From assembly GCF_006345805.1 (NCBI RefSeq), contig NC_043012.1:13702001-13766000 (forward strand): DNA of 64,000 nt. Reading direction: 5' to 3'. Source of the DNA: Octopus sinensis (lineage: Eukaryota). Below the pieces are notes generated by a model. The model was not told the DNA's origin. It did no database searches and saw only the letters and a list, made by a program, of their open reading frames with translations. Both the position numbers and the translations under genes were made by a program. This document shows positions 12,541-63,468 of the stretch, in pieces (positions within the stretch are counted from its first letter, which is position 1; each line of letters opens with the position of its first letter).

Positions 12541-15500
12541 CAGAGATCAAAGAGGGGTGCCGACAGAGATCAAAGAGGGGTACCGACAGAGATCAAAGAG
12601 GGGTGCCGACAGAGATCAAAGAAGGTGTCGACAGAGATCGAAGGGGGTGCCGACAGAGATCAAATAGGGTGCCGACATAGATCTAAGGGGTGACGACAGA
12701 GATCAAAGAGGGGTGCCGACAGAGATCAAAGGAGGTCCCGACAGAAATCAAAGAGGGGTGCCGACAGAGATCAAAGGGGGTGCCGACAGAGATCAAAGAG
12801 GGGTGCCGACAGAGGTTAAAAAGGGTGCCGACAAAGATCAAAGTGGGTGCCGACAGAGACCAAAGAGGGGTGCTGACAGGGATCAAAGGGGTGCCGACAG
12901 AGATCAAAGAGGGGTGTCGACAGAGATCAAAGAGGGTGCCGACAGAGACCAAAGGCGGTGCTGACGGAGATCAAAGAGGGGTGCCGACAGCAATCAAAGA
13001 GGGGGCCGACAGAGATCAAAGAGGGGTGCCGACAGAGATCAAAGAGGGGTGCCGACAGGAATCAAAGAGGGGGCCGACAGAGATCAAAGAGGGGTGCCGA
13101 CAGAGATCAAAGAGGGGTGCTGACAGAGATCAAAGGGGTGCTGAGAGAGATCAAAGGGGGTGCCGACAGAGATCAAAGAGGGGTGTCGACAGAGATCAAA
13201 GAGGGGTGCCGACAGAGATCAAAGAGGGGTGCCGACAGAGATCAAAGGGGAGGCCGAGGGAGACCAAAGAGAGTGCCGACAGAGATCAAAGAGGGGTGCT
13301 GACAGAGATCAAAAAGGGTGTCGACAGAGATCAAAGGGGGTGCCGACAGAGATCAAAGAGGGGTGCCGACAGAGATCAAAGAGGGTGCCGAAAGAGATCA
13401 AAGAGGGGTATCGACAGAGATAAAAGAGGGTGTCGACAGAGATCAAAGAGGGTACCGACAGAGATCAATGGGGGTGCCGACAGAAATCAAAGAGAGGTGC
13501 CGACAGAGATCAAATAGGGTGCCGACAGAGATCAAAGGGGTGCTGACAGAGATCAAAGAGGGGTGCCGACAGAGATCAAAGAGGGGTGCCGAGAGGAATC
13601 AAAGAGGGTGCCGACAGAGATCAAAGAGGGGTGCCGACAGAGATCAAAGAGGGGTGTCGACAGAGATCAAAGAGGGTGCCGACGGAGATCAAAGAGGGGT
13701 GCCGACAGAGATCAAAGGGGGTGCCGACAGAGATCAAAGAGGGGTGCCGACAGAGATCAAAGAGGGGTGCCGACAGAGATCAAAAAGGGTGCCGACAGAG
13801 ATCAAAGGGGGTGCCGACAGAGATCAAAGAGGGTGCCGAAAGAGATCAAAGAGGGGTATCGACAGAGATAAAAGAGGGTGTCGACAGAGATCAAAGAGGG
13901 TACCGACAGAGATCAATGGGGGTGCCGACAGAAATCAAAGAGAGGTGCCGACAGAGATCAAAGAGGGGTGCTGACAAAGATCAAAGAAGGCACCGACAGA
14001 GATCAAAGAGGGGTTCCGACAGAGATCAAAGAGGGGTGCCGACAGAAATCAAAGAGGGGTGCCGACAGAGATCAAAGATGGGTGTCGACAGAGATCAAAG
14101 GGGTGCCAACAGAGATCAAAGAGGGGTGCCGACAGAGATCAAAGAGGGATGCACAGAGATCAAAGGGGGTGCCGACAGAGATCAAAAGGGTGGTGCCGAC
14201 AGAAATCAAGAGGGGTGCCGAAAGCGATCAAAAAGTGTACACCGACAGAGATTAAAGAGGGGTATCGACAGAGATAAAAGAGGGTGCCGACAGAGATCAA
14301 TGGGGTGCCGACAGAGATCAAAGGGGGTGCCGACAGAGATGAAAGGTGGTGCCAACAGAGATCAAAGAGGGGTGCCGACAGAGATCAAAGGGGCCGACAT
14401 AGATCAAAGAGGGGTACCGACAGAGATCAAAGAGGGGTGTGCCGACAGGTACCTACAGAGATAAAAGAGGGTGCCGACAGAGTTCAAAGAGGGGTTCCAA
14501 CAGAGATCAAAGAGGGGTGCCGACAGAAATCAAAGAGGGGTGCCGACAGAGATCAAAGAGGGGTGTCGACAGAGATCAAAGGGGTGCCGACAGAGATCAA
14601 AGAGGGGTGCCGACAGAGATCAAAGAGGGGTGCCGACAGAGATCAAAGAGGGGTGCCGACAGAGATCAAAGAGGGTGCCGAAAGAGATCAAAGAGGGGTA
14701 TCGACAGAGATAAAAGAGGGTGTCGACAGAGATCAAAGAGGGTACCGACAGAGATCAATGGGGGTGCCGACAGAAATCAAAGAGAGGTGCCGACAGAGAT
14801 CAAATAGGGTGCCGACAGAGATCAAAGGGGTGCTGACAGAGATCAAAGAGGGGTGCCGACAGAGATCAAAGAGGGGTGCCGAGAGAATATCAAAGAGGGT
14901 GCCGACAGAGATCAAAGAGGGGTTCCGACAGAGATCAAAGAGGGGTGCCGACAGAAATCAAAGAGGGGTGCCGACAGAGATCAAAGAGGGGTGCCGACAG
15001 AGATCAAAGAGGGGTGCCGAGAGGAATCAAAGAAGGCACCGACAGAGATCAAAGAGGGGTTCCGACAGAGATCAAAGAGGGGTGCCGACAGAAATCAAAG
15101 AGGGGTGCCGACAGAGATCAAAGAGGGGTGCCGACAGAGATCAAAGAGGGATGCACAGAGATCAAAGGGAGTGCCGACAGAGATCAAGGGGGTGCCGACA
15201 GAGATCAAAGGGGGTGCCGACAGAGATCAAAGGGGTGCCGACAGAGATCAAGAGGGGTGCCGAAAGCGAATCAAAACAAAAAGTGTACCGACAGAGATTA
15301 AAGAGGGGTATCGCAGAGATAAAAGAGGGTGCCGACGAGATATCAATGGGGTGCCAAGAGCCGACAGAGATCAAAGGGGTGCCGACAGAGATGAAAGGTG
15401 GTGCCAACAGAGATCAAAGAGGGGTGCCGACAGAGATCAAAGGGGTGCCGACATAGATCAAGAGGGGTACCGACAGAGATCAAAGAGGGGTGTGCCGACA

Positions 15501-15963
15501 GGTACCTACAGAGAATAAAGAGGGTTCCGACAGAGTTCAAAGAGGGGTTCCGACAGAGATCAAAGAGGGGTGCCGACAGAAATCAAAGAGGGGTGCCGAC
15601 AGAGATCAAAGAGGGGTGTCGACAGAGATCAAAGGGGTGCCGACAGAGATCAAAGAGGGGTGCCGACAGAGATCAAAGAGGGGTGCCGACAGAGATCAAA
15701 GGGGTTCCGACAGAGATCAAAGAGGGGGTGCCGACAGAGATCAAGAGGGGTGCCGAGAGAGACCAAACAAAGGGTTGCCGAAAGAGATCAAAGAGGGGTG
15801 CCGACAGAGATCAAAGGATGTACCGACAGAGATCAAAGGGATGCCGACATAGATCAAAGATGGGTGCCGACAGAGATCAAAGAGTGGTGCCGACAGAGAT
15901 CAAAGGAGGTGCCGACAGAGATCAAAGAGTGTGCCGAAAAAGATCAAAGATGGTGCCGAAAGA
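12541..15963 (+). repeat. 23-bp minisatellite (CAGAGATCAAAGAGGGGTGCCGA), roughly 150 units
   Basis: Direct reading; 21-24-bp variants, no spacers; source of all the PTEIK/RQRSK/DRDQR ORFs. Confidence 0.97.
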
Positions 15964-15967
15964 AATC

Positions 15968-19261: not shown

Positions 19262-20461
19262 TTATTCTTCCTGATTTTCCTGTGGTACAAACGACAAAGA
19301 TATGAATATGATCGAAATTATTATCGATATTATAATACTGACTTTTAGAAATATAGTGTCAAGTCGTATGTAGTTGAAATTATACTTTCGGTTTGTATTT
19401 CTTGATATTTCCTCCGATTTTGCGATAGAAATCCTGGAAACATCCGCTATTTGATTACTACAAAATTTATTTTTCTTTTTACATGGCGAACTTAATTTTG
19501 GCTCATTAGACGACTGAATTACATACAACTTGCTGACAACCACCGAACCAAGAGTGGTAATCCCACTCATCAATGATAACAACATTAAATACAACATAAG
19601 AAGTGAGGGGTATTTTGAATTTGCTGGAGTTTTATTCTCAAACTGAATAAGGTATAAGACGTTTGAGAGAAATACCGTCGTAGCCAGAGAAACTTTCTCG
19701 CCTGATTCAGGAGGCAGGAGGAAAACAAACACCGTCAAAAGCGTCATCATTATTGTTGGAATCAGCATAGCTATGATACCAATAGTAAGCTTACGCTGTA
19801 AGTGTATCGATGCAACAGCGTAACTGAAAGAGAGTTCCAAGACTTCCCTCTCACCTCTTATATTAACATTCCATTTATGGTTTTGTGTATGATTTATATG
19901 ATAGAAAGTGAGTTTTTTTATTTGTGTATGCTGAAGTGCATGCAAAGCGATACACATGCCAATTTCGCATATATGTTCATCGAATGGGTAGGCGTAAGCA
20001 TTTACCTGGCAATGACTATGTAATAAAGTTAGCGACCACTTTTCCACCACCCCATTATAATAAATCTTCACTTCAGGAAACTTGTCTTCATCATCTGATT
20101 CTTTCATGGAATTGCACATTATGATGGCTGGCATCCACACCTTATTTTTTGGCATGTATAAACTCGTAATGTTGTTGTGTTCCAATGGATTCCAGACCAG
20201 ACGTTCATCGTACCAATGGTTCGTAAAGAAGTATCTAGCCTTTAGTAAGTTATTTACGAAATCCAAATCATAGAGTGTGTGAAGACCCATGACCACATAT
20301 ATATCAACAGTATGAGTTACATTTATAACAGGTCTTACATACTTGTTATAATTAGATAATAAGAAATCTTGCAATAATCCTTCATCTGTGTACATACGGT
20401 TAGAATTTGCTTCCGATATAATCAGAGCGGAAAGGAAAACACAATATTGTATCAATATCAT
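19262..20461 (-). CDS. Cephalopod chemotactile receptor (atypical nAChR-like Cys-loop channel subunit), intronless ORF, CRT-like
   Basis: 399 aa; signal peptide, YNKYVRPV, WYDERLVWNP, WMP, Cys-loop CQVNAYAYPFDEHIC, M1-PPESGEKVSL-M2, M3, M4; lacks loop-C vicinal Cys-Cys and loop-B Trp. Confidence 0.95.
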   Translation of the reverse strand: MILIQYCVFLSALIISEANSNRMYTDEGLLQDFLLSNYNKYVRPVINVTHTVDIYVVMGLHTLYDLDFVNNLLKARYFFTNHWYDERLVWNPLEHNNITSLYMPKNKVWMPAIIMCNSMKESDDEDKFPEVKIYYNGVVEKWSLTLLHSHCQVNAYAYPFDEHICEIGMCIALHALQHTQIKKLTFYHINHTQNHKWNVNIRGEREVLELSFSYAVASIHLQRKLTIGIIAMLIPTIMMTLLTVFVFLLPPESGEKVSLATTVFLSNVLYLIQFENKTPANSKYPSLLMLYLMLLSLMSGITTLGSVVVSKLYVIQSSNEPKLSSPCKKKNKFCSNQIADVSRISIAKSEEISRNTNRKYNFNYIRLDTIFLKVSIIISIIISIIFISLSFVPQENQEE

Positions 20462-20699
20462 TATTCGAAATATGTAAAATCTTCAATCTCATTTCTTTTT
20501 AATCACATGTTAATGATTTCCAAAGAATATCACTTTTGTAAATGTTTTGTAATTTCTTTAATTAAAATGTAGATCTATTTTGTTAAATGAATTACAATTT
20601 CGATATTATTGATGCAAGACAATAATGTCAAGATAGATTGCTAATGTACATGGTTGAATTTTACAACAGAACAGAAGGATATTATCCATTTATCTGCAA

Positions 20700-21045
20700 A
20701 ATAAGAACTCGAAATAATCGAAAGTATGCAGCGGATTACAGTGGAAAATTTCACGAGAAATGCAAATTTAGTGTGTAAGAAATTTGTGTTGGTATTTGCC
20801 AGCACTACATTGCAAATACCTAATCATCGTGTGTTTTGCTGTTACAGAATAGGGTTAAAGATTTATTTATTGCTGTCATATAATGTTCATTCTTTACCAA
20901 AATATGTAAGAGAATCGTATACCGAGAGTTGTAGTTCCCGCTTTGTTACTCCTGTGACGATATCCATGTTAGAGTTAATGAATTGCAGCCAAACACATCC
21001 GAAAGTACATGCAAGTGCTATGAATCTGCAACCAAAAAGAAACCA
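20700..21045 (-). promoter_or_regulatory. Conserved upstream motifs of CR gene 1
   Basis: AAGTATGCAGCGGATTACA at 20722-20740 and CTGTGACGATATCC at 20952-20965 match the same motifs at the same distances upstream of the other two CR ORFs. Confidence 0.55.
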
Positions 21046-21639
21046 ATGATTCGTTAGAATGATCAACGAACATAAAAGGCAACATGAAAATCATTAGGGT
21101 TTAACTTGATTTATAGGTTTCGTGTAAATATCCATGCTAGTAAATCTAAAGTTTTGAAATAAATGTCCGAGTATATGTCATCTTTGGTTGGGATACATTG
21201 CAAATAAATTTTAAATGTTGATTTTTGACAAGTTACTTAACATGTATACCTTTATATTGTTTATAGCTGAATACATAAAAACAGTTTAATCTAAGAAAGA
21301 TACAAGAAAGGATGCGTTGTATGTTATACAATTTCAGAAATCGTTTACTTCGTTGAGTTCTATAGAAAGGGAATCATAGTACACAGCACCATCTATTTAT
21401 ACAAGGAAACGGAAGGCCTAGTGCGCACTCGCTATAACGTCTTGACTAAAAGCACGAGTAAAACATGTTTTAACTTCAATAAATAGATTGTGATTTATTG
21501 TTGCATAGACACATACATACGTATATACAGAGACCTAAGTCTACTTTATTAGAAATTCCACAATATCAACAGGATATTTTGTATGTATGTATGTATGTAT
21601 GCAGATTTGTGTTTTGGTTTATGTATGTGTTCTCATGTA

Positions 21640-33221: not shown

Positions 33222-35885
33222 ATGTGGGGCCTGTTGCATCAAAATAGAAACAAAATTTCTTTCCTGAGAGATCTTACTGCATGCAATCAAGCCCTATGCA
33301 TAGCACTTGTGGAAACTCACCTCAACCTTGATATAGAGGACGCAGAAGTACACATACCAAACTATGCCATACTGCGAACAGACAGAAGGGAAAGGAGCCA
33401 TGGTGGAGTTGCTGTATACATCCGAGATGACCTCACACCCCAGGTCTTGATGACATACTCAAATTCGGTATGTGACACCTTAATTGTATACATAAGACAA
33501 CATAATATAGTCATATGCAATGCATATTGCCCACCGGATGCACCAAATCACATAGGCAAGTTTGAAGATTGCCTCACAAGAATTAAAGAAATCCTCATGA
33601 ATCTGGAACACCACGTGACCATATTTCTTATGGGTGATTTCAACTTCCCCAACGTAAAATGGCCCGAAGATCACATACTCTCAGGAATGAATCATTGCAA
33701 GCAAGTACAGGTGGAGTCCCTGCTCAACCTCACCAATGCCTTATTCATGTCTTCTGTGCAAGCCGTATGCCAGAAATATGTCCCAGAGCACAAGGCTAAA
33801 ACAAATAGGAGCAAGATTCCAAGAGACAGGAAGATCCTCATGAGACGACGGACGAAGGTTGCAAATCGTCTCAACCAACATCCCAAAAGTAGCGAAACGT
33901 CCCGCCTAAAAACAACACTGATGGAGATCGAAAAAAGGCTGCAACAATCCTATGTGAAGGAGAAAGCAGACAAAGAAGCCTGGGTTATAAAAAACATTCA
34001 ATCAAACCCAAAGGTCTTCTTTCATTACGCGAAAGAAACAGTCTCAGTGCACTACAAGATAGGACCCCTTCTCCAGAAGGATGGCTCCCTCACAGACAGT
34101 CCAACTATGATCAGTGAGATGCTGAATGGCCAGTTCAAAAGTGTCTTTACCACCCCGTTGGAACACAGACAAGTGAACGAACCAGTGGACTTCTTTGCCG
34201 CCTCACCTATAACCAACGAGGCGGTTACAATAGAATGTATTGACATTAGCGAAAAAGATGTCCTACTAGCCATAGATGAATTGGACACAAACTCAGCCGC
34301 TGGTCCAGACGGTTTCCCAGCCATCCTCCTCAAAGCGTGTAAGCATGCCCTGGCAAAACCCCTTAAGATTCTCTTCCAGAGCTTTCTTGTGAAAGGCAAA
34401 CTGCCAAGCAAGCTGAAGGAGGGAATAATATGCCCAATACATAAAGAGGGAAGTAGAGCAGATGCCAAAAACTATAGGCCTATCTCTCTGACTTCACACA
34501 TCAGCAAAGTCGTGGAAAGGATAGTCAGAAAGAAACTAATCGCATTCCTTGAGGAGAATAACTTGCTGAGTAATACCCAGCATGGTTTTCGACCAGGTAG
34601 GAGCTGCCTGACCCAGCTCTTACAGCATTATGACTGGGTGTTGAGGCAGTTACTCATCAAATCAAATGTGGACGTAATCTACCTTGATTTTGCAAAAGCT
34701 TTTGAGAAGGTGGATCATGATATGATATGCCACAAACTACGTGACCTCGGCATAGCTGGAAAACTCGGAGTGTGGTTGCATGACATCATGAAAGATAGGA
34801 GTCAGGCAGTAGTGGTTAATGGAGCCACCTCTATGAACACACAAATAGTGAGCGGTATTCCACAGGGCACTGTCTTGGGACCACTGCTTTTTATATTGGC
34901 CCTCTCAGATATGCCCTCAAATGCCCGGATAGCCACTCTGGCCAGCTATGCAGACGATACGAAAGTCTCGCAGAAAATACAGAACCCCAGCGATGTTGCA
35001 CACCTGCATCAGGAGTTGGACTCAATCAACAGATGGGCTGAGGATAATAATATGCAGTTTAATGCTGAAAAATTCCAGGTCCTGCGCTACCAGCATCCAA
35101 AACTGAATATTAAACTTACAGGATACACCGGTCCACAGGGAATTTCAATCCCAGAGCCTAAGTCTGGGACAAGTGCACATTACCAGGATGGCGACAAAGT
35201 GCAGACGACTGGCTGGGTGGATCCTAAGAACATTCAGAACCAGAGATAAGGAAACCATGATGGTCCTCTGGCGGACATTCGTCCTCAGTCGCCTGGATTA
35301 CTGCTCACAGCTATGGTCACCCACCAGTGTAAAATTAACAGCAGACCTTGAAGCAATCCAGAGAAGATTCACAAAGAAGATCGTCTCTTTGCAACAGCTC
35401 AGCTACTGGGAAATGTTGAAACAGCTAAGACTCTACTCCCTGGAGAGAAGACGGGAGAGGTATGCAGTAATATATGTCTGGAAGATCCTGGAAGGAATTG
35501 TGCCAAATTTTGGCATTGTAAGCTACACCAATGCTAGAACGGGACGACACTGCATAGTGCCAAAGATCCCAGCAATGCCATCACGCTTCAGGACCAGCTT
35601 CTGCAACAGTCTGGGTTTCAAGGGCCCACAGCTTTTTAATATTCTCCCAAAGAGTCTGAGGAACTTGCACAAATTAGATGTAGCGGTTTTTAAATCAAAA
35701 CTGGACATCTTCCTGTCAAGAGTCCCAGATGAACCTACCTCACGGCGAGAGGTGCAAATGAGAGTAGCTGTATCAAACTCCATTCTTCACCAAGTGCCAC
35801 ATATTAGACGAGGTTCGTCGCAATAACAGTGTAGCACAAAACGGCGGTGCATCGCATGGCCGCAGCTCTGAGCTGAAACTAGAAA

Positions 35886-37676: not shown

Positions 37677-38749
37677 ATATATATATATATATACGAAATG
37701 ATGAGATGATGTATGTATATCAAAGGTAGAGATATTCAGTCACGAAATGGTTAACACGTGTGTGATGCACACGATTATTCTTTTTGCATTCTGTTCATTG
37801 TTTTTCTTTTCCTGTATCGGCTTTGTATCAAGAACGGATTCCCGTACCCCGGTCGAGGAGTCTTGTACTATGTCACCTTCTGTTTCAAGTTTTTCTTTAT
37901 TTATCCTTTCAAGTAAAGCATCTTGTTTTTGAAAGTTTTCATTTATCCCTTAGGAGTGTCTTTCAGGTTTTTTCCTATATCAAATATACTGCACCTTGAA
38001 ACGTAATAATTTATTCATGTAAACGCTGGTTAACTATATTCAAAGGCAAATATTATTATCTGTCCACCCCACCGCAATAGGCATAGGTGGTTTAATGTTG
38101 AAATACATACGTTAGTCAATTAGAAACTAGACCTTTTATACTTTATTTGATTACCCGAATGCATCTTCACAGCAATCATCAATTCATCTCGCCACTAAAT
38201 ATTAGATCACAAAGCAAGTAATGTTTGTGAATGGGTTTAGTCGTTACGTGTACCCTATTGCTTGACTGTTATTTTATTTTGTCGATGCTTGAGCGATGAA
38301 AAGCAAAGTTGACCTCGGTGCGAAATGTATTCCGAACCTAAAGGGCAGGAACAAACGCAGCAAAGCATATAATCGATGCTCTGCCACCTCACTACATTGA
38401 CAACAGAACCAACAATAACAAAAACAACAACAATAATAATTAATATTATTATAGTTTATTATTAATCATTACGCTTTTACAGATAAATCGAAGATGGTAC
38501 AGAACGATTGAATACAATACGATATGATGTGGTGCTATATAAAAGTGATTACAATGCAAGTAAAAACAAGAAGGCAGAAAATACAATCAAGGACAACTCC
38601 ACAAATGTAAGTTGACTTCCTAGAGTTGACCGAGTAATTCACACAAAGCAATATTCACGCTGACCAGAATTCAAGCCCTCTCTCCCCATTTTCCTCCATC
38701 AATCTACAACTTATGCTCGAAGCACCCCCGAGCTAATTTGCTGGTAGTT

Positions 38750-39500
38750 TAAGTGGACGTTACCTATGTTTAAACCTTTCAAACCTATCCACTGTACAAC
38801 TTCTTTCACGAAAGCCAGCAAACAAACGCAACATTGCTTCTTCTTCTCGACCATAGGTAAGCAGCGGGACAATGTTTAAAGTAAACATCACACATAGCCG
38901 AATCCGTCATACATGTGACAGATGCGTTCGGGTCAATTCTACAATTCAACAATACCAGGTCAGAAAATGTTCCTCGCTCTGAGCACAACTATTGCAGGTC
39001 TAGTTGAGGGCACTTCAATATCCGAACGGTTTATCTCCTAACGGCAAAACTCAAGCCTATTTACATTGCTTGACCACAAACATCCGGAAATTATGAAGAT
39101 ATTTCCATCACACACGAGCCTGTTTATTTTGTCGACAATAACAGTCTGAGAATATTGGAAATAACTGGAACATCGCCAATCGCATTCTCCGTCTATCTGA
39201 AGGCTGTGGGTGCATGACAAAGCTCTGTGTGTTAAGCGACCTAATTTGGTCTAGGCACGATCGAGAATTACATTTCACTCAGAGTGATAAAATGGTGAAA
39301 AATGAGTGTCTCAAATGGTGACGAGACACTCTTACAGCACAAGACACACTGGATACGTTACTGCTTCAGTGTATGTTTACGCTTTATCACCTGTGGCATC
39401 CCAATCCTTCACTTAGCTGACAGCAAATGGAACACCTGATATTTGAAGCACGCCCTTTGTACAGAAAGTGGAGGAACAGACATTCTCTCCTGTAAGACGT
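38750..39500 (-). mobile_element. Very old non-LTR remnant (possibly L1/Tx1-like C-terminus); paralogous copy at ~56040-56770
   Basis: TCNSCAQSEEH and FKHCPAAYLW-like pieces; clear nucleotide similarity between the two copies. Confidence 0.35.
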
Positions 39501-41137
39501 GAAATGGGGTAAGACGTGTCTAGTGTTAATACTTAATATTTTAGAAGACCAGTAATAGTAATTTTGTGGGATGTACTACAAACCACAGCTAAATAACCTT
39601 TATATCACAACCTATTCGTCTAAAAATGATATTGAAATTATAAAAAGCATACTTCAGATTCGGACTGCCCATAGATTACAAGTGAGACTAAAAATACTTG
39701 TTAATTTAACAATTCACAAGACTTCACTATTTTTAAAAAAATTACGTTTAATTACCAGTTTGAAAATTATAGATGGGTGGTCGCCGATTTCCATTTTTTT
39801 CTTTTAACCATCGACTGTTTCTTCCATTGTTTTTAGGTGAGTAGTACAAAAAAAAAACACAAAAATTGCCTAAAATTGGTATTGAGTGGCGGACGTGACT
39901 TTGAAGAAATTCGTAACTGTTCAAATATTTTTTTCTGCTTTTGTTTTTATTCCGAAAAGATGTCTCCCATTTTTTTTTCATTTCATAATGCAGTAAAAAA
40001 TGGAGAAAATCGGCGTGAAAGAGGTGATTCAGTAATTTTCAATTTTGTTTTACTCAAAAAGTATTCCCTGCCATCATTTGTAAGGAGGTGGTGTATAACA
40101 GTTTTTAAATATCCCAGCCAAAAGAAAGACAATAAAAATTATATCATTGTGTTATTATGAAAGTCCACCAAAGCATTCTCTTGGGAAATACCTTGCACCG
40201 ACGGAATACTCAGGTAGTGCCTGCATATAATGGGCGCCATTTTAAAGCTGGCGATTTTGGCACTTCGGCAGATGACGTATTTTTGCATTTTATGTTGTTT
40301 TGGATTTCTTTGGATTTGTGAACTTTCTTTAATCCATAAAGTTGCTGGTTTTCATCTCAAAGTTGGTTAAGTGATTGATTTCCTTTAACATCAGCGTATT
40401 TTGGTACTTTGTCGTCAGTTTACCTACTTGAATCATAGAAATTCTTTGAATTTGTTGTAAATATTTGAGCCAACATGATCATCGCATTTGTTGTAAAGAT
40501 GTGAACTGGCACCATATCCCAACACCTCCCTCCCAAAACCATATAAAAACATATATTTCTAACAACACACATTCCAATAATAACCTTTTTTTGCTCTCTC
40601 CCTCTCCTATCATCCCCTTTATATTAAAAAACGTGTATCTTACACCTCCTTAACCCTCCGCCAGACACACACTTAACCTCATTTTTAACAGAAAATTACT
40701 AGAGTTTATCTTCATGAAATTAAGATAATTGATTCAGCCAGAAGAAAAGAATCTGGAAAATATTTGACCATTATATTTTCTGAAACGATCGTAATGCATC
40801 TCACTTGACTATATTTTATATTTTTATTTCATTCGGTAACTACTTTATTTCATTTCTTCGAGAACCATTTTAAATCTCCTTACCCTATTGAATTTTACTG
40901 CATACGAGAATTATTGTAAATCTTGTAAACATCTCACCTGCTCGAAATTTTAATTTAATTTATTTAATCCGATGTAATTTTCTGTATAATAATTGGAATT
41001 ATAATAAAGGAAATATATATGTATATATTACTTTTATTCCGAATTCAACTGTGTATTGACCGGATTAGGAGAATGATAAACTCATCTGTCTTCTCTCCCA
41101 CCTTAAACTTTGATATATATATATATATATATATATA

Positions 41138-43784: not shown

Positions 43785-44103
43785 TATCAATTGCCCATGA
43801 TTTGACTTGTGAATTTGCATAGAGGATAACATGTGAAAATTATTATAAGCATGAAGCTAAAGTGAGCGAAGTAAAATAGTTAGTGTTCAATGTTCGTTTC
43901 ATAGAGTGAAAATCTTGCGTTAGTATTTAAATTAAGCATTTCTAATGGGTAGTATGTGACAACTCTGTACATATAACATCGCTATTTGAAACCACGTGTG
44001 AAGCAAAGGTTAAACATTTCTGCGTGTCTCGGAATGAGTGGAGTATAATATATGATTGTAGGTTCAGAATGCCAGATCACTTTATAATTTAAATGTAAAA
44101 ATG

Positions 44104-45276
44104 TCATTCTCTTCTAAGAGATAGACAGATAAAGTAAATTGAAACTATTGCCGATGTTAGAATTATAATTTTTAGAAATATACCATCAAGTCGGCTGTAA
44201 TGAGAAATACATTTTTTCATCCCTTTCCCTTTAAATTCTTTCTTAGACATTGTTGAAATATCAGCAATTTCATTAATGCTTGGCATAATTTTATTTTCGT
44301 TCGACGGGTTCAATTTGCTATTGTCAACTAACTGATTTACATACAGCCTGGTTATAATCACCGAACCAAGTGTAGCGATACCACTTAACAGTGATAATAT
44401 CATTAAATAATATCCAAGAAGTGAGGGTTGTTTTGAATTTTTTGGCAAATCATTGTAGAACTGTGCAACGTACAAGACATTTGATAAAAATATTGTCATT
44501 GCTAGAGAAACTTTCTCACCAGATTCTGGTGGTAGAAGGAAAATAGAAAAAGTCAATATAGTCATCATTGTTGTTGGAATCAGCATAGCGATTGTACCCA
44601 ACTTTATTTTGCGATGTAAGTAGAGAGTAGCGGATGCGTACGAGAAAGTGTTTTTGTCATATACGTTACAAGAGAAGCTGATATCCCATTGATAGTTAGA
44701 TACATGACCTACACTATTGCAGGAAAATTCTTTTATTCTTGTATCTTGAAACTTATGCGATGGGGTACCCATGGAAATAACGCATGCCTGTTCATCAAAA
44801 GGGAAATTGTAAACATTTATTGCACAAAAAGTGTGTAGTAATTTAATTGACATCATTTTCGCAAATCCATTAAAATCCACAGTTATTTCGGGAACGTTAG
44901 TTTCAGATTCTGATTCCTTTAATGTGTGGAACATTGTAATAGACGGGATCCATACCTTATCTATAGGTAGGTAGATATGTGTAATATTATTGTAGTTTAA
45001 TGGATTCCATCTCAACAATTCATCCGTCCATTGCAATACAATCCAGTACCGGGACACGAGTATATTGTTTACGTAGTCCAAACCATGGAGTACTTCAAGA
45101 AATAATTTTGCGGTTATATCGACCGAGGCAGTTAAATTAATGACAGGTCTTATATGTTTCATATAATTAGATAATAATTTGTCTTTCAACCTTAACTCAT
45201 CTTTGTACATTGGGTCACAATTTACTACCGATAGAGATGTAGTCAGAATCAGGACGATGCATTGAACAAATATCAT
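44104..45276 (-). CDS. Cephalopod chemotactile receptor (atypical nAChR-like subunit), intronless ORF
   Basis: 390 aa; signal peptide, HIRPVINLT, WTDELLRWNP, Cys-loop CAINVYNFPFDEQAC, PPESGEKVSL, four TM helices, no vicinal Cys-Cys. Confidence 0.95.
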   Translation of the reverse strand: MIFVQCIVLILTTSLSVVNCDPMYKDELRLKDKLLSNYMKHIRPVINLTASVDITAKLFLEVLHGLDYVNNILVSRYWIVLQWTDELLRWNPLNYNNITHIYLPIDKVWIPSITMFHTLKESESETNVPEITVDFNGFAKMMSIKLLHTFCAINVYNFPFDEQACVISMGTPSHKFQDTRIKEFSCNSVGHVSNYQWDISFSCNVYDKNTFSYASATLYLHRKIKLGTIAMLIPTTMMTILTFSIFLLPPESGEKVSLAMTIFLSNVLYVAQFYNDLPKNSKQPSLLGYYLMILSLLSGIATLGSVIITRLYVNQLVDNSKLNPSNENKIMPSINEIADISTMSKKEFKGKGMKKCISHYSRLDGIFLKIIILTSAIVSIYFICLSLRRE

Positions 45277-45890
45277 TATGTATAATAATTCTGTATGGTA
45301 AATATGAGCGAATCACAGTTTCTTTTAGTTTTTATCAAGCAAAATTAAGAATTTCAGAAAAATTCTATTTTATTTTCTTTAAAAATAATATATTAGCTTT
45401 TTTCCTGAACACGTCATTCGTGTTACAGATAAGAATATTACGATTGATTACTTACATGAACATTATAACACATTATTAATACAAAAGAAGAACCCAAAAT
45501 GCGTCTCAGGATGCGTTCTCATTCAATGAGTATAGACGGATTACCACATTGATAATCAGTTTTCATTGTAGCTGATTTTTTTTGCTTGGAAAATTAAGAT
45601 AACGATCTGAATATATTTTGGTGATGCTGTCATAAAACTCCAATCAACTTTGCATGTTGCACAATGAATCCAAACGTCTTAGTAAAATATTCAGAAGCGA
45701 CATCTTTCAATATTTAGGAAGCTATTCATCAAGGTATCGGACGCTATTATGCCGGTGGTTTCTGTAACGATATCCGCGTGAAGCAGTAAAGTGATATCGT
45801 TTATAGTGAAGGGAAGGAATTACTGTCAAACCTACTCTTCACTGTAGAGTAAATGGATAAGTCGGCAACCTAAAAAAATGAAGTTATTTG
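45277..45890 (-). promoter_or_regulatory. Conserved ~600-bp upstream block (paralogous to 62603-63205)
   Basis: Colinear similarity by eye, including an identical 18-mer AGTATAGACGGATTACCA (45529-45546 = 62876-62893) and GATATCCGC.TGAA. Confidence 0.7.
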
Positions 45891-47189
45891 TTAGATCATA
45901 TCATGTAAATCAAATTTTGCAAACAAATAAAATATCAATAACTCTGTATTCGTGAAAGAGCGAAGAAATAAGGTATACTTACAATGGCCGGGCGAAAATA
46001 AACGCCAAGAAATATAATAGGGAACCAAATCAAATTATGTAACATCAATCAAAAATAATAGGAATTATCTCATGCTGATGAATCTCTAACACTTTGGAAT
46101 AGTTACGCATGTATGAAAGTTAAAACAATTATTTTCATGCTAAATAACGAAGAATATCAAGGCTAAATGATGAATTCATAAAACATGCATATAATAGTCT
46201 GCTTGTTCGTTCGCACGTAATACTTTAGTTAGTTTGGGAGGTGGAGATTTATTGACTCAGTGATGGAGTAAAAGTGAGAGAGAGAAATGGAGAGTAAAAA
46301 CGGAAGAGAGGGACATTTAGAAAAGGGCGATTAATATTAATACACATTGTCCTAGTGGTCACTTAGTCAGCTGGAGGTCGATACGAAGGAGTAGACGAAA
46401 GGAAACGACGAGAGGAAAAGAGGGGAGAGAAGTGTTAATGGTGTGCGATGTGGTGGGAAAGGAATACTTATTACGTCCATAAAAAGTTAGCGGAAGATAA
46501 AGGTAGAGAGTGATGGACAGGGGATGCAGTTAAATTAAGAGAGAGAGAGAGAGAGAGAGAGGCAGACAGCGGTGGTGGATGTGGTGGTAGTAGTGGTGGT
46601 GAGTTGATATTGAAAAGTATTTTGTTTTATTGAGCTAATTTTTTATATACAGACCATCGCATACGCATAAGTGCGATTATTTATCGTTGCTCGCTTTAAA
46701 ATTTGGGATTTTCTTATAACGGTTAATTTAGCCTAAACTCTTGATTAACAAGAAACACAGTTGCAGCTACCAGAGAATGGATGTGCAAACATAGAGCACA
46801 GATTAGAAAAGAAGAGCGAGAAGATATAATAAAAAGAAAAGACAACACTGAAGAGACGTAGGCGAGTGTCAAGAAAATTTAAAGAAAGCTAAAGTCATCC
46901 ATTCTTTCTTCAATTGGTTTTCTTATTGTTTTTTTCATTCCATGGAGCTTACACAGACCCCACTTGTAAGTATATAATTTACTTAAAGTTATTCTAACAA
47001 AAACAAAATGATAGATATTGTCTGAGAAAATACACTGGTTTTATAGGTTTTTTATTTGTTACTATATTACCGTGGCGAACAATGAAGTACATTCTAATGA
47101 AAATAAAATTGGTAGAAATGCTTATACGCACAAGCATACATACATACAGTAAATGCCCCTGATGCACTACAAGGCACTGGCTCTCGTGG

Positions 47190-51269: not shown

Positions 51270-52031
51270 TACCACTGGGTTCAATCTTCTGCCCAGAAGC
51301 AAGAACGCGTCGAGTGCTCGAGGATGAATTTGGAGATGTGCCAAGAAGATGGGTCAAAATTGTTCAAAAGACTGATAACACAGGATGAAACCCGGGTCCA
51401 TCACTATGATCCAGAGACCAAAGCCCAGTCAATGCAGTGGCAGCACCGTGACTCACCTCCTCCAAAGAAGGCAAGGGTGCAGCCCTCCGCTGGCAAGGTC
51501 GTGCTCACAGTCTTCTGGGAACAGGACGGAGTAGTGATGACAGATTTTCTGGCAAAGGATACCACAATTACAGGAGCCTATTATGCTTCACTTTTGAGGA
51601 AATTAAGAGAAGCTATCAAAATCAAGAGGCGGGGTAAGATCAGCAAAGGCATCCTCCTCCTGCAAGACAACGCTCCGGTCCACAACTCGCTTGTCGCCAG
51701 ATCAGAAGCACAGGGGTGCGGCTATGAACTCCTCCCCCTACTCTCCTGACATTGCACCCTCTGATTTTCACCTCTTCCCAGCCATGAAGTTGTTTTTGAA
51801 AGGAAAGCATTTCCCAGATGATGCAGCCTTGATTTCTGAAGTCACGTCGCGGTTGGAGGAGCAGGCTGGTGACTTCTACAAAAACGGTCTCCAGAGCTGC
51901 ACCAAACGATGGGAGAAATGCGTAACTCTGGGTAGTTCCTATGTAGAAAAGGACTAATAACTGTGCCAGGTTTCGTTACTCTACTGCTATGGGAAGTGAG
52001 TCAGCGGCATTACTTATTGAACGCCCTCGTA
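51270..52031 (+). mobile_element. 5'-truncated mariner transposon with frameshifted transposase and right TIR
   Basis: ITQDETRVHHYDPE, LTVFW, LLQDNAPVH, YSPDIAPSDFHLF; ends ACTTATTGAACGCCCTCG-TA. Confidence 0.92.
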
Positions 52032-54085: not shown

Positions 54086-56909
54086 ATTTAGAGGTCTAAA
54101 AAGACATGCTAATGGAGGGCATATTGTCGCATTTCTTTCTCCTGTTTGCCAGCACAGTTGTCTAATATGTAATAAAATGTGTAAAAGCTTGGGTGGGCTT
54201 AAAATTAATATAAGGGCATCACATGGCAACAATTATAAATCCTTTCAGTAAGTCTTCTCGGATATGGCTTTTCTTGCGTAACGAGGATGCAGCTATGTCG
54301 TGGTTACTAATGCCTGTTTATTAAACAGCATGACTACCCGTCTGATAAGGGTACACCAGGCACATGCATTACAACCATATGTGCGTGACATGGTGACCTC
54401 ATATAAAGATAAGCAGCACATGACCTTGCATGTGTGGCCCAGTTAGAATTTTCTTCTAGTCGAGTAGCCCATCCCGCTCAAAAGGTCCCTGAATAAGGAT
54501 TGTTTAAAGATGTTGAACGAACCACCCATGTTTCCAAATGTGAATTACCCAAACCTCCAAGAATCCCTTTCAACACACGGTCATGATGCTCTCCCACCAC
54601 TTCTGCTCGTGATCAGAAATGCACATATCGTCAACCACCGAAGGACATGCTCAACTGGTTATGGTCAACAACCGACATGCAAATCTGTGGTACTGAGCAA
54701 TATATTTACTGTAGCCCATCGTTTATACCAAGATATATCTTTTGCTCTTCGAATCCAGGACACATTCCCGTACAAGCTACACCGGTCGACAGGTCTCACA
54801 CTACAGATCCTTGTTCCTTTCTTTTTCTTTTCAACAGTTCACTCAAGAGATGAAATCGTCAACATATTTTGAAAATATGCATCCATGTGAAATATAAATT
54901 ACAAATTTTGGCACAAGGCCAGTCAATGAGGCCGGAGTGGTAAGTCCGATAAATTCGGACCTAGAATTCAAATGGTGTTTTTTTTGTCACCAAACCGAAA
55001 AAATGAAATGCAAAGTCGACCCAGACGGAACTTGAAATCAGAAACAGGAAATGTCGCTAAGTGTTTTGCTCATTGTGCTACGATTGTGTCAGATCACTGA
55101 ATTTATGCAATTAAAATATTAGAAAGAATTGTGTTGTTGCTTTCGCTATGATCTTATTGCTGACAATGATATTTCTTAAACGTTTATTTGTTGAGTCTTC
55201 TGGTTCAATTTTTACAAAGTCTTCAGGTTACTTCCTTTTAAATCAAGCATTTTGGTTTTTGGCATTATTCACTAGCCATGATTTTAAGGTTTTTTTGACA
55301 ACGCACAATCAGCTACACCATGATAAACATCAACTTAACATTGTAAACGTTATTCTACCACTATAGAAAAGTATATTCCAAGGCGAAAATTTGTCTAACT
55401 CCACCACTATAATAAGGACAGGTAATGCAGTGTCCCAAATACATATATTGGCCAAACAGAAGCCAAACATTTAATAATCTGAGAGTGGTGAGCCGAATTC
55501 TTTTCCGCAACATTCATCTATTCATCGCGTCTCTAAATTTTCTTGTACAAGGCAGGCAATATTAGTGAATGGGCTTAGTCGTTTGCATATACCCTAGCTG
55601 AACTGGTATTTTATTTTACCAATGCTTGAGCGACGAAATGCATAGCTGTGCTTGGTGCTAAAGAGCAGGAACAAATACGGCAAGGCATATTTTTCTATAC
55701 TGAACCACTCCGGCGCCTTGAGAACAGAACAAAAAATAACAACAGAAACAAAGGCAACAATAATAATTATTACTAATATTTTATTCGTTATTACATTTTT
55801 ACAGATAAATGGATGTGAGTACAGAAAAAAAACAAAAACTAATAAGTACAAAATTCAAGCAAAAGAAATTCCACAAAAAGTGTTAAACATGAAAATCACA
55901 CAAAGCTAAGTTCAAGTAAATCTTTCCATCTTTCTTTATGAAGCTACAGGCCTATGGACGGATCGAGCCTGTTCTCTTGGAATATCGTTGTCACTCTCAC
56001 CAACCTTTCAATAAATGTTCTAGTACGTAAAGTGGAAATCGTCTGTTTTTAACATTTTCAAATTCGTCCAATACATCACTACTTTAGCGAAAGCCAATGA
56101 GAATGATAAATATTTTGTTTCCTTCCTGATCATTGAGAGGAAGTAGGACAATATTTAAAATAAACCCCATTCATAGGCGAATCCGCGAAACATGTGACAG
56201 CTGTGTTCGGCGCAAATCCACAATTCAGTGAGTCTAGGGCTCTGGACAAAAGTATGTAGCAATATTTCTTGCTCTGCGCGAATCTCCGGCTGGTACTTAG
56301 CTGTAAAGTTTATTTCCTACTGGCAATACCACAGGTCACTTTTGTGTTGCCAGACCAGAGACGCCTGGAGATTATCTATGAACCTTGGCAAAAAATACTT
56401 CCGATCCAGACGAGCTTGTTTATTTTCATCAACAACTACAGTCTATTCGTGGACGACCCATCTAGCTGAAGGCCACGAGTGTTTAACGAAACAAAGGTTG
56501 CCAAATTTTGCTCCGGTTTCGTCATGAGCACGACTACAGCTCACTAAAAATCTGATGAGGTGGTGAAAAAAGAGTCTCTCAAATGGCAACTCCCCATTCT
56601 TGCTGTCAATGACACATTAGTTGCGTTTCTTCAAAAGTACATGATTACGCATTATCACAAGTGACATCCAAGTCCTTCAATTGGGGATTGATTACAACAA
56701 ACGGAACAATTAAACTTTGAAAGACGCCGCCTCCTCAGAAAGTTGACGAGTACACAATCCATCCGTTAAGATGTGATATGTTACAAGACATGATAATAGT
56801 TAATCTATAAAATTTTAGAACAAGGGCAGAATTCTTTTGGGACGTGCTAGAAACAACATCTAAATCTCCATTAAATGATACAAATTTTCGTCTGATAATT
56901 ACCTTGAAA

Positions 56910-57165
56910 TGCCTTATTAATTTAACACACTCACCGGTCAGATTTCCACTTATTTACTTATTATATTTTACTAAAATTTTCTAATACTACTGAAAAGACT
57001 GCAAGTTGCCACGAAAATTTTAGTGAAATAAAATAAGTAAATCAGTGGAAATCAGACCAGTGTGTGTGTTAAATAAATAAGGCACTAAAACATAAAGACC
57101 CCTCCCAGACACAATAAAATATACTTCTCACACGAATTCACATAAAGAATCTTGCAAACCACATA
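56910..57165 (+). mobile_element. Penelope-like terminal fragment with internal inversion (related to 4900-5045)
   Basis: Hairpin TGCCTTATT...AATAAGGCA followed by the CACACGAATTCACATAAAGAATCTTGCAA terminal motif. Confidence 0.5.
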
Positions 57166-58175: not shown

Positions 58176-58559
58176 CATGTACGTGTGTGCACGCGCGGGC
58201 GTCTGTGTGTTCGTATTGATCCTTGGCCTGTTCAGAGACGATTTGACACGACTTATGTGCTTCGTTTTTCATACTGGCTTGCATAGCAAAATTTAATTAT
58301 AAACAAGAAGGTAGATTGTACAAAGTTGAGTCACAGAACTTTTTTACAATATATGCCCCATACCGTTAGCAATGTACTGCCAGAATTTAAGTTAAGCTTT
58401 TCCAATGTGTAATGTGAAACAAACTAGACAGATAGTGTTAAATATTGGCAACCACATGTAAAGCAAAGTTTAAATATTTCTGCATATCTGAGAATAAATA
58501 CATTTGTGTATATGAATCTTTAGAATACTGAGTGTTCTTGTAATTTAAAAGGAATAAGT

Positions 58560-61180
<2,621 letters not shown>

Positions 61181-61402
61181 ATACAAAGTAAATCAAGTAA
61201 GTTTCTAGTTTTAGCTGCTTACACCATATATTTTGCGTATTTAAATTAAGCATTTCAAGTGTGTTATATTGAACAACTCTGAATATATATTATCAATTTT
61301 GTGGACCTCGTGGTACTTAAAATGTGAACGTCCCTACACATCTGACAATAACTAAAGTATTATATGTGATTTTCGAGAAAGAATGCAGGATAATATTATA
61401 AT

Positions 61403-62602
61403 TTAAAAATACCCTAAATTTCCAAGACTAAGACAAATAAATGCAGTTGAAAATGATACCGTTATTATAATGATAGATTTTAGAAATATGTCATCAAGTT
61501 GGTTGTAACGGAAAATATATTTTTTCGTTTTTTTTCTTGGCATGTCTTTTTTAAGTACAGAAGGATTGGATTCTTCTTTAGATATTATTGAAATATCTGT
61601 AACTTGATTAATGTGCGAGGACATAGTACTTTGATGCGATTTGATATTATCAGACGACTGATTTACATATAACTTGCTTATAACCACCGAACCAATTGTA
61701 GCGATACCACTTAACAAGGATAATACCATTAAATATAAAACAAGAAGCGAGGGTCTTTTTGAATTTATCGGTATGGTTTTCTCGATTTCAACAAGGTACA
61801 AGACGTTTGATAAAAATATCATCGTACCTAAAGAAACTTTCTCACCAGATTCTGGAGGTAGAACGAAAACGAAGATAGTCAAAATAGTCATCATTATTGT
61901 CGGAATCAACTTAGCAATGGTACTTGAATTCAATTTACGACGTAAGTACATCGTAGCATTTGCGTAGTTGTATTTTTCCTTTATGCCATCTGGGTCGCAA
62001 AACAATGTGATATCCCATTGATAATTGCGTAAAAAGTCTGCTTTACTGCAAAGCAATTTTTTTATTTTTATATGTTGAGGTTCATACGTTGGTATATAAA
62101 TAGAAATATCACACATCTGTTTATCAAAAGGATAACTGTAAGCATTCATTTCACAATCGGCATGCAGTAATATGGCTGACGCCATTTCCACAGATCCATT
62201 GGAATACACAACTACATCCTGACAACTATTTTTATATATTGTTTCCGTTCTTGAGTTGGATAATGTAGTAGACGGGATCCATATCTTATCTTTAGGTAGA
62301 TAGATACGCGTAATATTATTATAGTTTAATGGATTCCATCTCAACAATTCATCCATCCATTGCAGTTCACTCCAAAACCGAGCCTTAAGTATACTGTTTA
62401 CAAAGTCCAAATCATAGAGTTCGTCAAGATATAATTCTGCATTTATATCGACCGATGTAGTTAAATTAATGACAGGTCTTATATGTTTCGTATAATTAGA
62501 TAATAATTTACCGTTCAACCGTAATTCGTCTTCGTACATCGGATCAGTATTTACTATCGACAGAAATATTGTCAGAAACAGAACGAGGTACTGGACAAAC
62601 AT
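61403..62602 (-). CDS. Cephalopod chemotactile receptor (atypical nAChR-like subunit), intronless ORF
   Basis: 399 aa; HIRPVINLT, WMDELLRWNP, Cys-loop CEMNAYSYPFDKQMC, PPESGEKVSL, four TM helices, no vicinal Cys-Cys. Confidence 0.95.
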   Translation of the reverse strand: MFVQYLVLFLTIFLSIVNTDPMYEDELRLNGKLLSNYTKHIRPVINLTTSVDINAELYLDELYDLDFVNSILKARFWSELQWMDELLRWNPLNYNNITRIYLPKDKIWIPSTTLSNSRTETIYKNSCQDVVVYSNGSVEMASAILLHADCEMNAYSYPFDKQMCDISIYIPTYEPQHIKIKKLLCSKADFLRNYQWDITLFCDPDGIKEKYNYANATMYLRRKLNSSTIAKLIPTIMMTILTIFVFVLPPESGEKVSLGTMIFLSNVLYLVEIEKTIPINSKRPSLLVLYLMVLSLLSGIATIGSVVISKLYVNQSSDNIKSHQSTMSSHINQVTDISIISKEESNPSVLKKDMPRKKTKKYIFRYNQLDDIFLKSIIIITVSFSTAFICLSLGNLGYF

Positions 62603-63205
62603 TTTTATTTATAATTATTCTGTAAAGAATATCTGTGAAAATTCAATTTCTTTCATATTTTATCATGAAAAATTAAGAATTTTTGAAAGAATTTGGCTTA
62701 TTTTACTTAATTATCAGATATTAATTTCTATCTCAAAAGCGTGTCATTTGTGTTGTTGAGGAAAATATTACGACTAACATGAAAATTATAGTTTAATACT
62801 AAAATAGAAAAACCACATTGTAAATACAAAATAAATACGCAAACATATATCGGCATGCCTTCTTTTCCACTTAAAAGTATAGACGGATTACCATACAGAT
62901 AAATCGTATTATAGCTAATTCTATTACTTGGAAATTAAGATCAGAATCTGAACAGAACTTTCTGGTGCCGCAGTCATAAACATATAATCAGCATTGCACG
63001 TTATATATCGCATCCAGTGTTTGTGGTAACATATTCATAGGTGTCCTTTTTTAATATGTGCGAAGGTATGGACGCTTTGTATCGGCTACTTCGGTGATGA
63101 TATCCGCATGAAACCGTAAATCGATCTTGTGTATAGTGTTTCAAACGTTCATTTGACTGTAAACAGATGAATCGGCAGCCTAAAAAAAAACAAGGTATTT
63201 GCATG
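62603..63205 (-). promoter_or_regulatory. Conserved upstream block of CR gene 3
   Basis: Paralogous to 45277-45890; GGATTA at 62885-62890, GATATCC at 63099-63105. Confidence 0.7.
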
Positions 63206-63468
63206 ATAATGTTAGGCAGATCAAAGTTTCTACCAAAAATAGTTCTCTGTAAAAATTTTGTGTAGAAACAAAATGTGTAATTACCTTCAAGTTAAATAAC
63301 CAAGTAAAATATCATAGTTCAACGTTATCTTGAAGAGATATAAATATAAAATTTCGAGTTATTAAAAGAAAATGAAAGATTGCGTAAGCTTTCTTATTAT
63401 TTGTATCATGGATATTATGATGTCAAACAATGAAATACACTTCAATGAAAATTTAATCGTTAGATATC

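Follow-up and report, generated by a model that had tools for sequence, protein, structure and literature searches.

A possible spliced 5' leader in octopus chemotactile receptor genes described as intronless

Chemoreceptor gene layouts and the octopus receptor array

Retrogenes have reportedly recruited distant promoters by way of a 5' UTR intron, as Fablet et al. are said to have described in 2009. According to two further accounts, retro-derived genes reach distant promoters via new 5' UTR introns (PMC3670739), and human odorant receptor transcripts carry one to four non-coding 5' exons, with the start site, not the ATG, as the reference point for their homeodomain sites (PMC4982115). The octopus chemotactile receptors (CRs) form a 26-gene cluster with expression in the suckers (PMC9068888) and are described as intronless and retro-derived (PMC11526382), a description repeated in PMC13174522 as yet awaiting verification in more genomes; both sources treat the intronless state as a sign of retroduplication. 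The wider question is how these receptors are switched on in combination in sucker cells; according to a 2026 preprint on cuttlefish transgenesis, no functional cephalopod promoter had been identified (10.64898/2026.09.23.753964). The literature searched, to which the primary CR papers did not belong, contains no account of CR promoters or 5' UTR introns, and term look-ups in PMC9258296, 10.1101/2025.10.28.685082 and PMC13652810 gave nothing relevant; public gene models with UTR exons may already show a CR leader intron.

The 64-kb stretch of octopus DNA analysed here (the window) contains three uninterrupted open reading frames on the minus strand, at 19262-20461 (gene 1, 399 aa), 44104-45276 (gene 2, 390 aa) and 61403-62602 (gene 3, 399 aa). 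All three encode the ligand-binding and transmembrane domains of neurotransmitter-gated channels (two Pfam domains, nAChR-like), the same two as in octopus CRT1 (PDB 9e6b/8eis), and gene 2, a CRT1-like pentameric ligand-gated channel, matches CRT1 (PDB 9e6b) with an E-value of 1.5e-119 over 385 aa. Named Octopus proteins are among its 22 strongest homologs, and the three genes are 45-56% identical to most family members. They form a tandem same-strand array with a spacing of 16-24 kb, each with a poly(A) signal less than 400 nt from its stop codon. The domains, CRT1 as the closest match, the uninterrupted coding region and the tandem clustering together identify them as octopus chemotactile receptors of the CRT type, and the original prediction that they are CR paralogs is borne out. 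In a tree of 18 CRT proteins genes 2 and 3 group together (support 97/93), while gene 1 stands apart, near the midpoint root.

The layout proposed below for these genes would be a fresh instance of the known spliced-5'-leader arrangement, and its mechanism would be ordinary. As in vertebrate odorant receptors, tandem chemoreceptor genes would combine a single coding exon with a predicted spliced leader and a promoter distant from the ATG (PMC4982115), although the CR product is a pentameric ion channel and not a GPCR, and the predicted CR acceptor lies about 0.57 kb above the ATG, with 11-16 upstream ATGs, whereas human odorant receptor 5' UTRs measure 389 nt in all (PMC4982115). As with retrogenes, promoter recruitment would be expected to leave behind an acceptor above the coding exon (PMC3670739); unlike in retrogenes, the CR acceptor would then have been multiplied across a receptor family by tandem duplication, and the retro-origin of the CRs is itself putative.

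Several minor observations concern the family as a whole. A degraded fourth CR copy lies on the minus strand at about 58385-59569 and 61026-61185, with 60% DNA identity to gene 3 and its start adjoining the 3' flank of that gene; no convincing match to the upstream leader or acceptor was seen beside it. It is split by an insertion at 59946-61042, whose inverted ends of 213 nt are 96% alike and which holds an open reading frame of 210 aa (60050-60682). After gene 2, a minus-strand remnant at 43811-43918 is homologous to the start of the degraded copy (2 of 500 shuffles were as good). The public models of gene 1 (19262-20290) and of its closest named relative (P0019, P0021) start at Met58, giving 342 aa without a signal peptide, and several further CR models are cut at the N-terminus too, which is a sign of poor annotation of CR 5' ends. 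Another public CR model, P0013, carries an N-terminal extension that is presumably transposase-derived. No CR locus was confirmed in viral contigs (45 pattern matches, none upheld), and the 79 examined of 186 confirmed loci in metagenome contigs are generic channels, 21-38% identical, with no CR among them.

A predicted 3' splice site above the coding exons

Three short motifs had been reported upstream of all three ATGs, and a renewed search of the sequence returned every position and distance. On the forward strand GGATTA starts at 20733, 45538 and 62885 (272, 262 and 283 nt above the ATGs of genes 1, 2 and 3), GATATCC at 20959, 45769 and 63099 (498, 493 and 497 nt), and TC[GT]GCA[AG]CC at 21025, 45862 and 63172 (564, 586 and 570 nt). 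Read on the gene strand, the A run that follows the last of these (motif 3) is a T tract and then an AG, with CTAAC 22-33 nt above the exon boundary. The predicted 3' splice site occupies 21026-21057 in gene 1 (CTAAC at 21053-21057, branch A at -29, CAG; exon from 21025), 45870-45894 in gene 2 (CTAAC at 45890-45894, branch A at -22, AG; exon from 45869) and 63180-63215 in gene 3 (CTAAC at 63211-63215, branch A at -33, AG; exon from 63179), all on the minus strand, placing the predicted acceptors at -564, -593 and -577 from the ATG. Pyrimidines fill 9, 10 and 11 of 12 positions in genes 1, 2 and 3, the YAG is CAG, TAG and TAG, and the AG-free zones extend over 77, 70 and 48 nt, with no other AG between branch point and acceptor; the sequence elements of a U2-type 3' splice site (branch point, pyrimidine tract with YAG, AG-free interval) are thus present. 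The branch A lies within the expected interval of about 14-45 nt above the exon, and its distances fit those of cattle introns, where nnyTrAy lies at 28.8 +/- 11.2 nt (PMC8531310), a mammalian consensus that may not be that of octopus. The splice consensus used throughout is mammalian, not derived from octopus introns, and the comparison is of three paralogs from one genome.

Such signals are rare in this DNA. Under a strict definition that was set after the motif had been seen (a YAG with 9 or more pyrimidines out of 12 and a CTAAC within the AG-free zone), 5 of the 6,543 AGs on both strands of the window pass, three of them being the motif 3 sites; by strand these are 5 of 3,019 minus-strand AGs and 0 of 3,524 plus-strand AGs. 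The other two lie at 50873 and 43856. An independent gapped pattern search likewise gave five matches, again including the three motif 3 sites, against 1.07 +/- 1.03 expected, and none of 100 shuffles reached five. When the thresholds were varied, all three genes matched in 12 of 16 settings; gene 1 failed in the four strictest (10 of 12 pyrimidines), and the loosest admitted 146 sites in the window. An acceptor-like site anywhere in a shuffled 700-nt upstream region appeared in 43-51 of 2000 trials. The site at 43856 lies within the remnant after gene 2, and that at 50873 (minus strand) is 5.6 kb above gene 2, near an open reading frame at 51324-51749 on the plus strand, which we take to be mariner transposase-like.

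The elements of the signal have moved between copies while the signal itself is kept. At the column where genes 2 and 3 have their AG, gene 1 has GG and instead a CAG 7 nt downstream, and gene 3 lacks CTAAC at the column of genes 1 and 2 and has another about 10 nt upstream, as would be expected if selection maintains splicing. In simulations of neutral drift from an ancestor bearing the signal, the strict form was present in all three copies in 0-13 of 4000 runs, the CTRAY form in 3-49 and the loosest form in 19-163 (nine settings each). Between acceptor and ATG gene 1 is clearly homologous to the other two. Above the branch point it shows no homology to them (shuffles did as well in 61 of 100 and 21 of 100 cases), and the 3' flank shows little or none (4 of 100 and 26 of 100). 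A duplication unit starting at the branch point was considered and rejected for genes 2 and 3, where homology continues to 47119/63467. It is very improbable that all of the motifs, motif 3 included, are a neutral residue of tandem duplication and that the splice-like signal is nothing but a T run arisen by chance in AT-rich DNA: the leaders of genes 2 and 3 do resemble each other only as much as passive DNA and four-fold sites do (see below), and four low-depth sequencing runs guessed to be RNA contain no junction, but the rarity of the signal, its persistence under neutral drift in no more than 13 of 4000 runs (strict form), the shifted AG and branch point, and the end of gene 1 homology at the branch point argue against it. 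From these sequence features motif 3 is likely a 3' splice site on the gene strand, kept by selection, and it would be old in the CR family, since the split between gene 1 and the other two genes lies close to the base of the CRT tree.

The reading that we favour, with a probability of about 0.68, is that CR genes called intronless have a spliced 5' leader, joined through the acceptor at -564 to -593, and a promoter further upstream. Transcription would start at that upstream promoter with a non-coding first exon. Recognising the branch point, the T tract and the AG located 564-593 nt above the ATG, the spliceosome would connect this exon to a long last one, in which roughly 0.57 kb of leader precedes the coding region and the 3' UTR. 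We infer in particular that the acceptor is used and that exon 1 exists. The splice signal would be maintained by selection, while the leader, copied at each tandem duplication, would decay at about the neutral rate and leave motifs 1 and 2 as islands at comparable distances from the ATG. If so, the DNA just above the CR start codons is transcript leader and not promoter, reporters and motif searches belong above exon 1, the label "intronless" has to be qualified, and the CR genes would seem to have converged on the gene layout of odorant receptors. The three exact junction coordinates (21025, 45869 and 63179) are testable with existing sucker RNA-seq.

A further variant would treat the receptors as alternative last exons on one strand, each behind a strong acceptor and joined by splicing to a single upstream first exon, or a small number of them, used in common; the choice and co-expression of receptors in a sucker cell would then depend partly on splice-site choice and not on a promoter per gene. 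Some room for it is left by the end of gene 1 homology at the branch point and by the failure to find a first exon or promoter shared by all three genes; OR51E2, spliced to an exon of a neighbouring pseudogene, offers a single precedent among odorant receptors (PMC4982115). The patchy homology of genes 2 and 3 and the donor-like sites above the acceptor, the poly(A) signal of each gene and the spacing of 16-24 kb speak against it, and we consider it highly unlikely.

Motifs 1 and 2 against the background of homology

If motif 3, read on the gene strand, marks a 3' splice site, the other two motifs would lie downstream of it, inside the transcript. Motif 1, GTAATCCG, is the longest exact word common to the three genes (minus strand; gene 2 45537-45544, gene 1 20732-20739, gene 3 62884-62891); in genes 2 and 3 it belongs to an 18-mer whose reported identity is confirmed (45529-45546 and 62876-62893). 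Motif 2, GGATATC (minus strand; gene 2 45769-45775, gene 1 20959-20965, gene 3 63099-63105), is the best-scoring island of the leader, and in its surroundings genes 1 and 2 are identical at 13 of 14 nt.

The entire 0.6 kb upstream is homologous among the three paralogs. The near-constant motif distances, proposed as a shared code, are real, and they are explained by paralogy: the distances to the ATG are similar because one exon was duplicated. Genes 2 and 3 align continuously (43923-45918 with 61237-63229, 69% identity), and in the block upstream of them 432 of 592 aligned columns agree (73%). As a control of the same age we used a passive duplicated block at 38032-39638, partner 55369-56910, of no assigned strand, which apparently belongs to the gene 2/3 duplication because the same degraded CR-start remnant follows both genes. 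Its stretches are 74%, 69% and 71% identical (330 of 447, 242 of 351 and 1020 of 1442), the 3' flanks of genes 2 and 3 66% (110 of 166) and their four-fold sites 76% (58 of 76), so that leader identity stands at the level of passive DNA (66-74%). Gene 1 is 53% (36 of 68) and 58% (38 of 65) identical to genes 2 and 3 at four-fold sites. The passive block was rejected as a duplicated promoter: its two copies sit downstream, some 4.5 kb from genes 2 and 3, and are also more alike than the four-fold sites of genes 1 and 2. Part of it may resemble a tRNA-derived octopus SINE.

The motifs exceed what chance would give without homology. When gene 1 was shuffled, two GC-rich three-way words of 7 nt or more near the diagonal appeared in 0.1% of 2000 shuffles, and none of 200 reached the observed island score; the gene 1 leader itself is homologous, with a mean global score of -0.25 where shuffles give -62 +/- 11. 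Residual homology, however, is not clearly exceeded by motifs 1 and 2. An identical 18-mer arose in 23-59% of neutral simulations (five settings, 600 runs each), and the 3' flanks of genes 2 and 3 share a 20-mer. Over about 560 positions three exact three-way words of 7 nt or more were seen against 1.2-3.4 expected by drift, two of them GC-rich against 0.1-0.8 expected, an excess whose probability is 0.003-0.2 depending on setting and 0.07 for the divergence actually measured. Of 1800 neutral simulations, 297 were as similar overall as the real sequences, and the real island score was attained in 32 of those 297. Conservation relative to neighbouring DNA is thus not above background between genes 2 and 3 and borderline in the three-way comparison, so that motifs 1 and 2 may or may not be under constraint; the claim that the islands are selectively retained holds for motif 3 only, once it is read on the gene strand with 30 additional nucleotides.

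The motifs had been interpreted as a common promoter module, with transcription starting within or just below the 0.6 kb and expression in sucker sensory cells driven jointly by a second factor bound at GGATATC and a K50 homeodomain factor bound at TAATCC, which we take to be the K50 homeodomain site. All three genes carry both words without mismatch, neutral drift gives somewhat fewer GC-rich three-way words than are seen, a given TAATCC survives in all three copies with a probability of only 0.01-0.02, and the upstream ATGs would be harmless if transcription started near the ATG. A TAAT-core hexamer upstream of chemoreceptor genes also recalls the homeodomain and Olf/EBF motifs of odorant receptors. 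Homeodomain sites are enriched at odorant receptor promoters (PMC4982115), and the active element described in the cuttlefish preprint overlapped a first exon and intron (10.64898/2026.09.23.753964). The odorant receptor motifs, however, rest on mapped start sites and enrichment over 160 transcripts (PMC4982115), whereas here one hexamer is seen in three homologous copies below the predicted acceptor, once per gene and with neither repetition nor turnover. Moreover, the splice site accounts better for motif 3, drift alone yields one to three such words, the island score is reached by the simulations noted above, genes 2 and 3 are no more alike than passive DNA, and one possibly RNA-derived contig spans motif 2. 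A common promoter module is therefore unsupported, with motif 3 read as a splice site and TAATCC retention within or near neutral expectation; a homeodomain code is unproven for motifs 1 and 2, and we regard this interpretation as unlikely. Its weaker form, with transcription factor sites inside a transcribed leader, is compatible with the spliced-leader reading, under which motif 1 could be a weak donor, a candidate protein-binding site or a residue of homology; motif 2 would have no assigned function, which counts against that reading.

A structured cis-regulatory RNA was considered and rejected. The leaders have unremarkable folding z-scores (0.02, 0.62 and -1.39), as do six windows around the motifs (-0.70 to 1.10), no stable structure is shared, there are no Rfam matches, and a 9-bp hairpin at motif 2 occurs in gene 2 only. 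No upstream open reading frame is common to the three leaders.

The predicted leader, a candidate second intron and the search for exon 1

Taken from the splice site to the ATG, the predicted minus-strand leaders span 20462-21025 in gene 1 (564 nt, 11 upstream ATGs), 45277-45869 in gene 2 (593 nt, 11) and 62603-63179 in gene 3 (577 nt, 16). These ATGs are not depleted (shuffle means 9.6, 10.5 and 10.3), which is awkward for a constitutive 5' UTR and constitutes the main difficulty for it; either leaky scanning or re-initiation would deal with them, or the leader is shortened by further splicing or a nearer start.

According to the alternative originally offered, a leader intron of 250-270 nt runs from a GTAATC donor within motif 1 to TACAG, 14-17 nt before the ATG. 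This was right as to direction (5'-UTR splicing), and the TACAG sites are indeed present, ending 14 nt (gene 2) and 17 nt (gene 3) before the ATG. Genes 2 and 3 read G/GTAATC, and the shorter leader would lose between 5 and 7 upstream ATGs, a count made with the cut placed 2 nt past the GT. The donor itself is weak, with no G at +5 and 5, 5 and 4 of 9 matches, scored by eye, to a U1 consensus of nine positions for which the listing threshold was 6. In gene 1 the word is retained, but it is preceded by T at -1 and an ATG-proximal acceptor is missing, there being no AG in pyrimidine context near that position; the conserved stretch also extends well beyond the donor hexamer, and better donors exist at -179/-176. 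GTAATC as a donor is accordingly improbable.

The better donors are CAT/GTAAGT in gene 2 (minus strand, 45450-45458; first intron base 45455, -179), with 8 of 9 matches to the U1 consensus, and the aligned CAT/GTTAGT of gene 3 (minus strand, 62778, -176), with 7 of 9; strong donors occur at 0.7-0.8 per kb per strand across the window. Paired with candidate ATG-proximal acceptors at 45291-45310 in gene 2 (exon would start at 45290, -14) and in gene 3 (exon would start at 62619, -17), both on the minus strand and with 7 of 12 pyrimidines, they would allow optional removal of a second intron of 160 nt, from -179/-176 to -14/-17, leaving 9 and 12 upstream ATGs in genes 2 and 3. The public CRT1-like model P0004 starts 11 residues before the usual Met (compare 45277-45320 of the window); provided that their Leu codon ends in A, these added residues could correspond to a pyrimidine tract with an AG at the position seen in gene 2, 14 nt before the ATG.

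Sequencing runs from three studies were mapped on 43800-47100; the four runs used carry a guessed RNA label, none of the 24 candidates being recorded as RNA. They gave 10 pieces at a depth of 2-4.2, of which eight fit fully and two, unlike the sequence at both ends, were set aside (44471-44537 and 46189-46231). One contig covers 45572-45797, across motif 2, with one mismatch, and is compatible with a transcribed leader; this support is weak because the runs may contain DNA. A 151-nt piece at 45168-45318 runs ungapped 28 nt past the ATG-proximal AG, which weighs against splicing there while falling short of the 31 nt needed to call a bridge. No junction was seen in any of the four runs and no piece reaches the acceptor at 45869; cover is zero at 45798-46188, above 46231 and below 44150, which does not count as a negative result, and cover summed by region, being unable to rank parts of the gene, was left out of account.

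Upstream alignments within the window did not locate exon 1. Donor candidates above the acceptor lie at 21236 in gene 1, at 45982 or 46982 in gene 2 and at 63284 in gene 3, with ambiguous alignments; donors 45982 and 63284 would plausibly define an intron of 105-113 nt, for which competing alignments exist. Further up on the minus strand, genes 2 and 3 share an island at 47064-47119/63412-63467 (42 of 56 nt identical, 75%), a candidate upstream exon or promoter piece that was not detected above gene 1.

The window also contains several repeats. Between 41137 and 43739 about four head-to-tail copies of a 588-nt unit are 99% identical, with a 195-nt inverted copy at the edge, reflecting either recent amplification or an assembly artefact. 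A 3.4-kb minisatellite at 12541-15967 consists of 151 copies of a 23-nt unit (GC 0.51-0.53) and gives rise to spurious open reading frames, and between genes 1 and 2 the plus strand at 33222-35826 holds open reading frames of 675 and 212 aa that resemble, by eye, a LINE endonuclease and reverse transcriptase.
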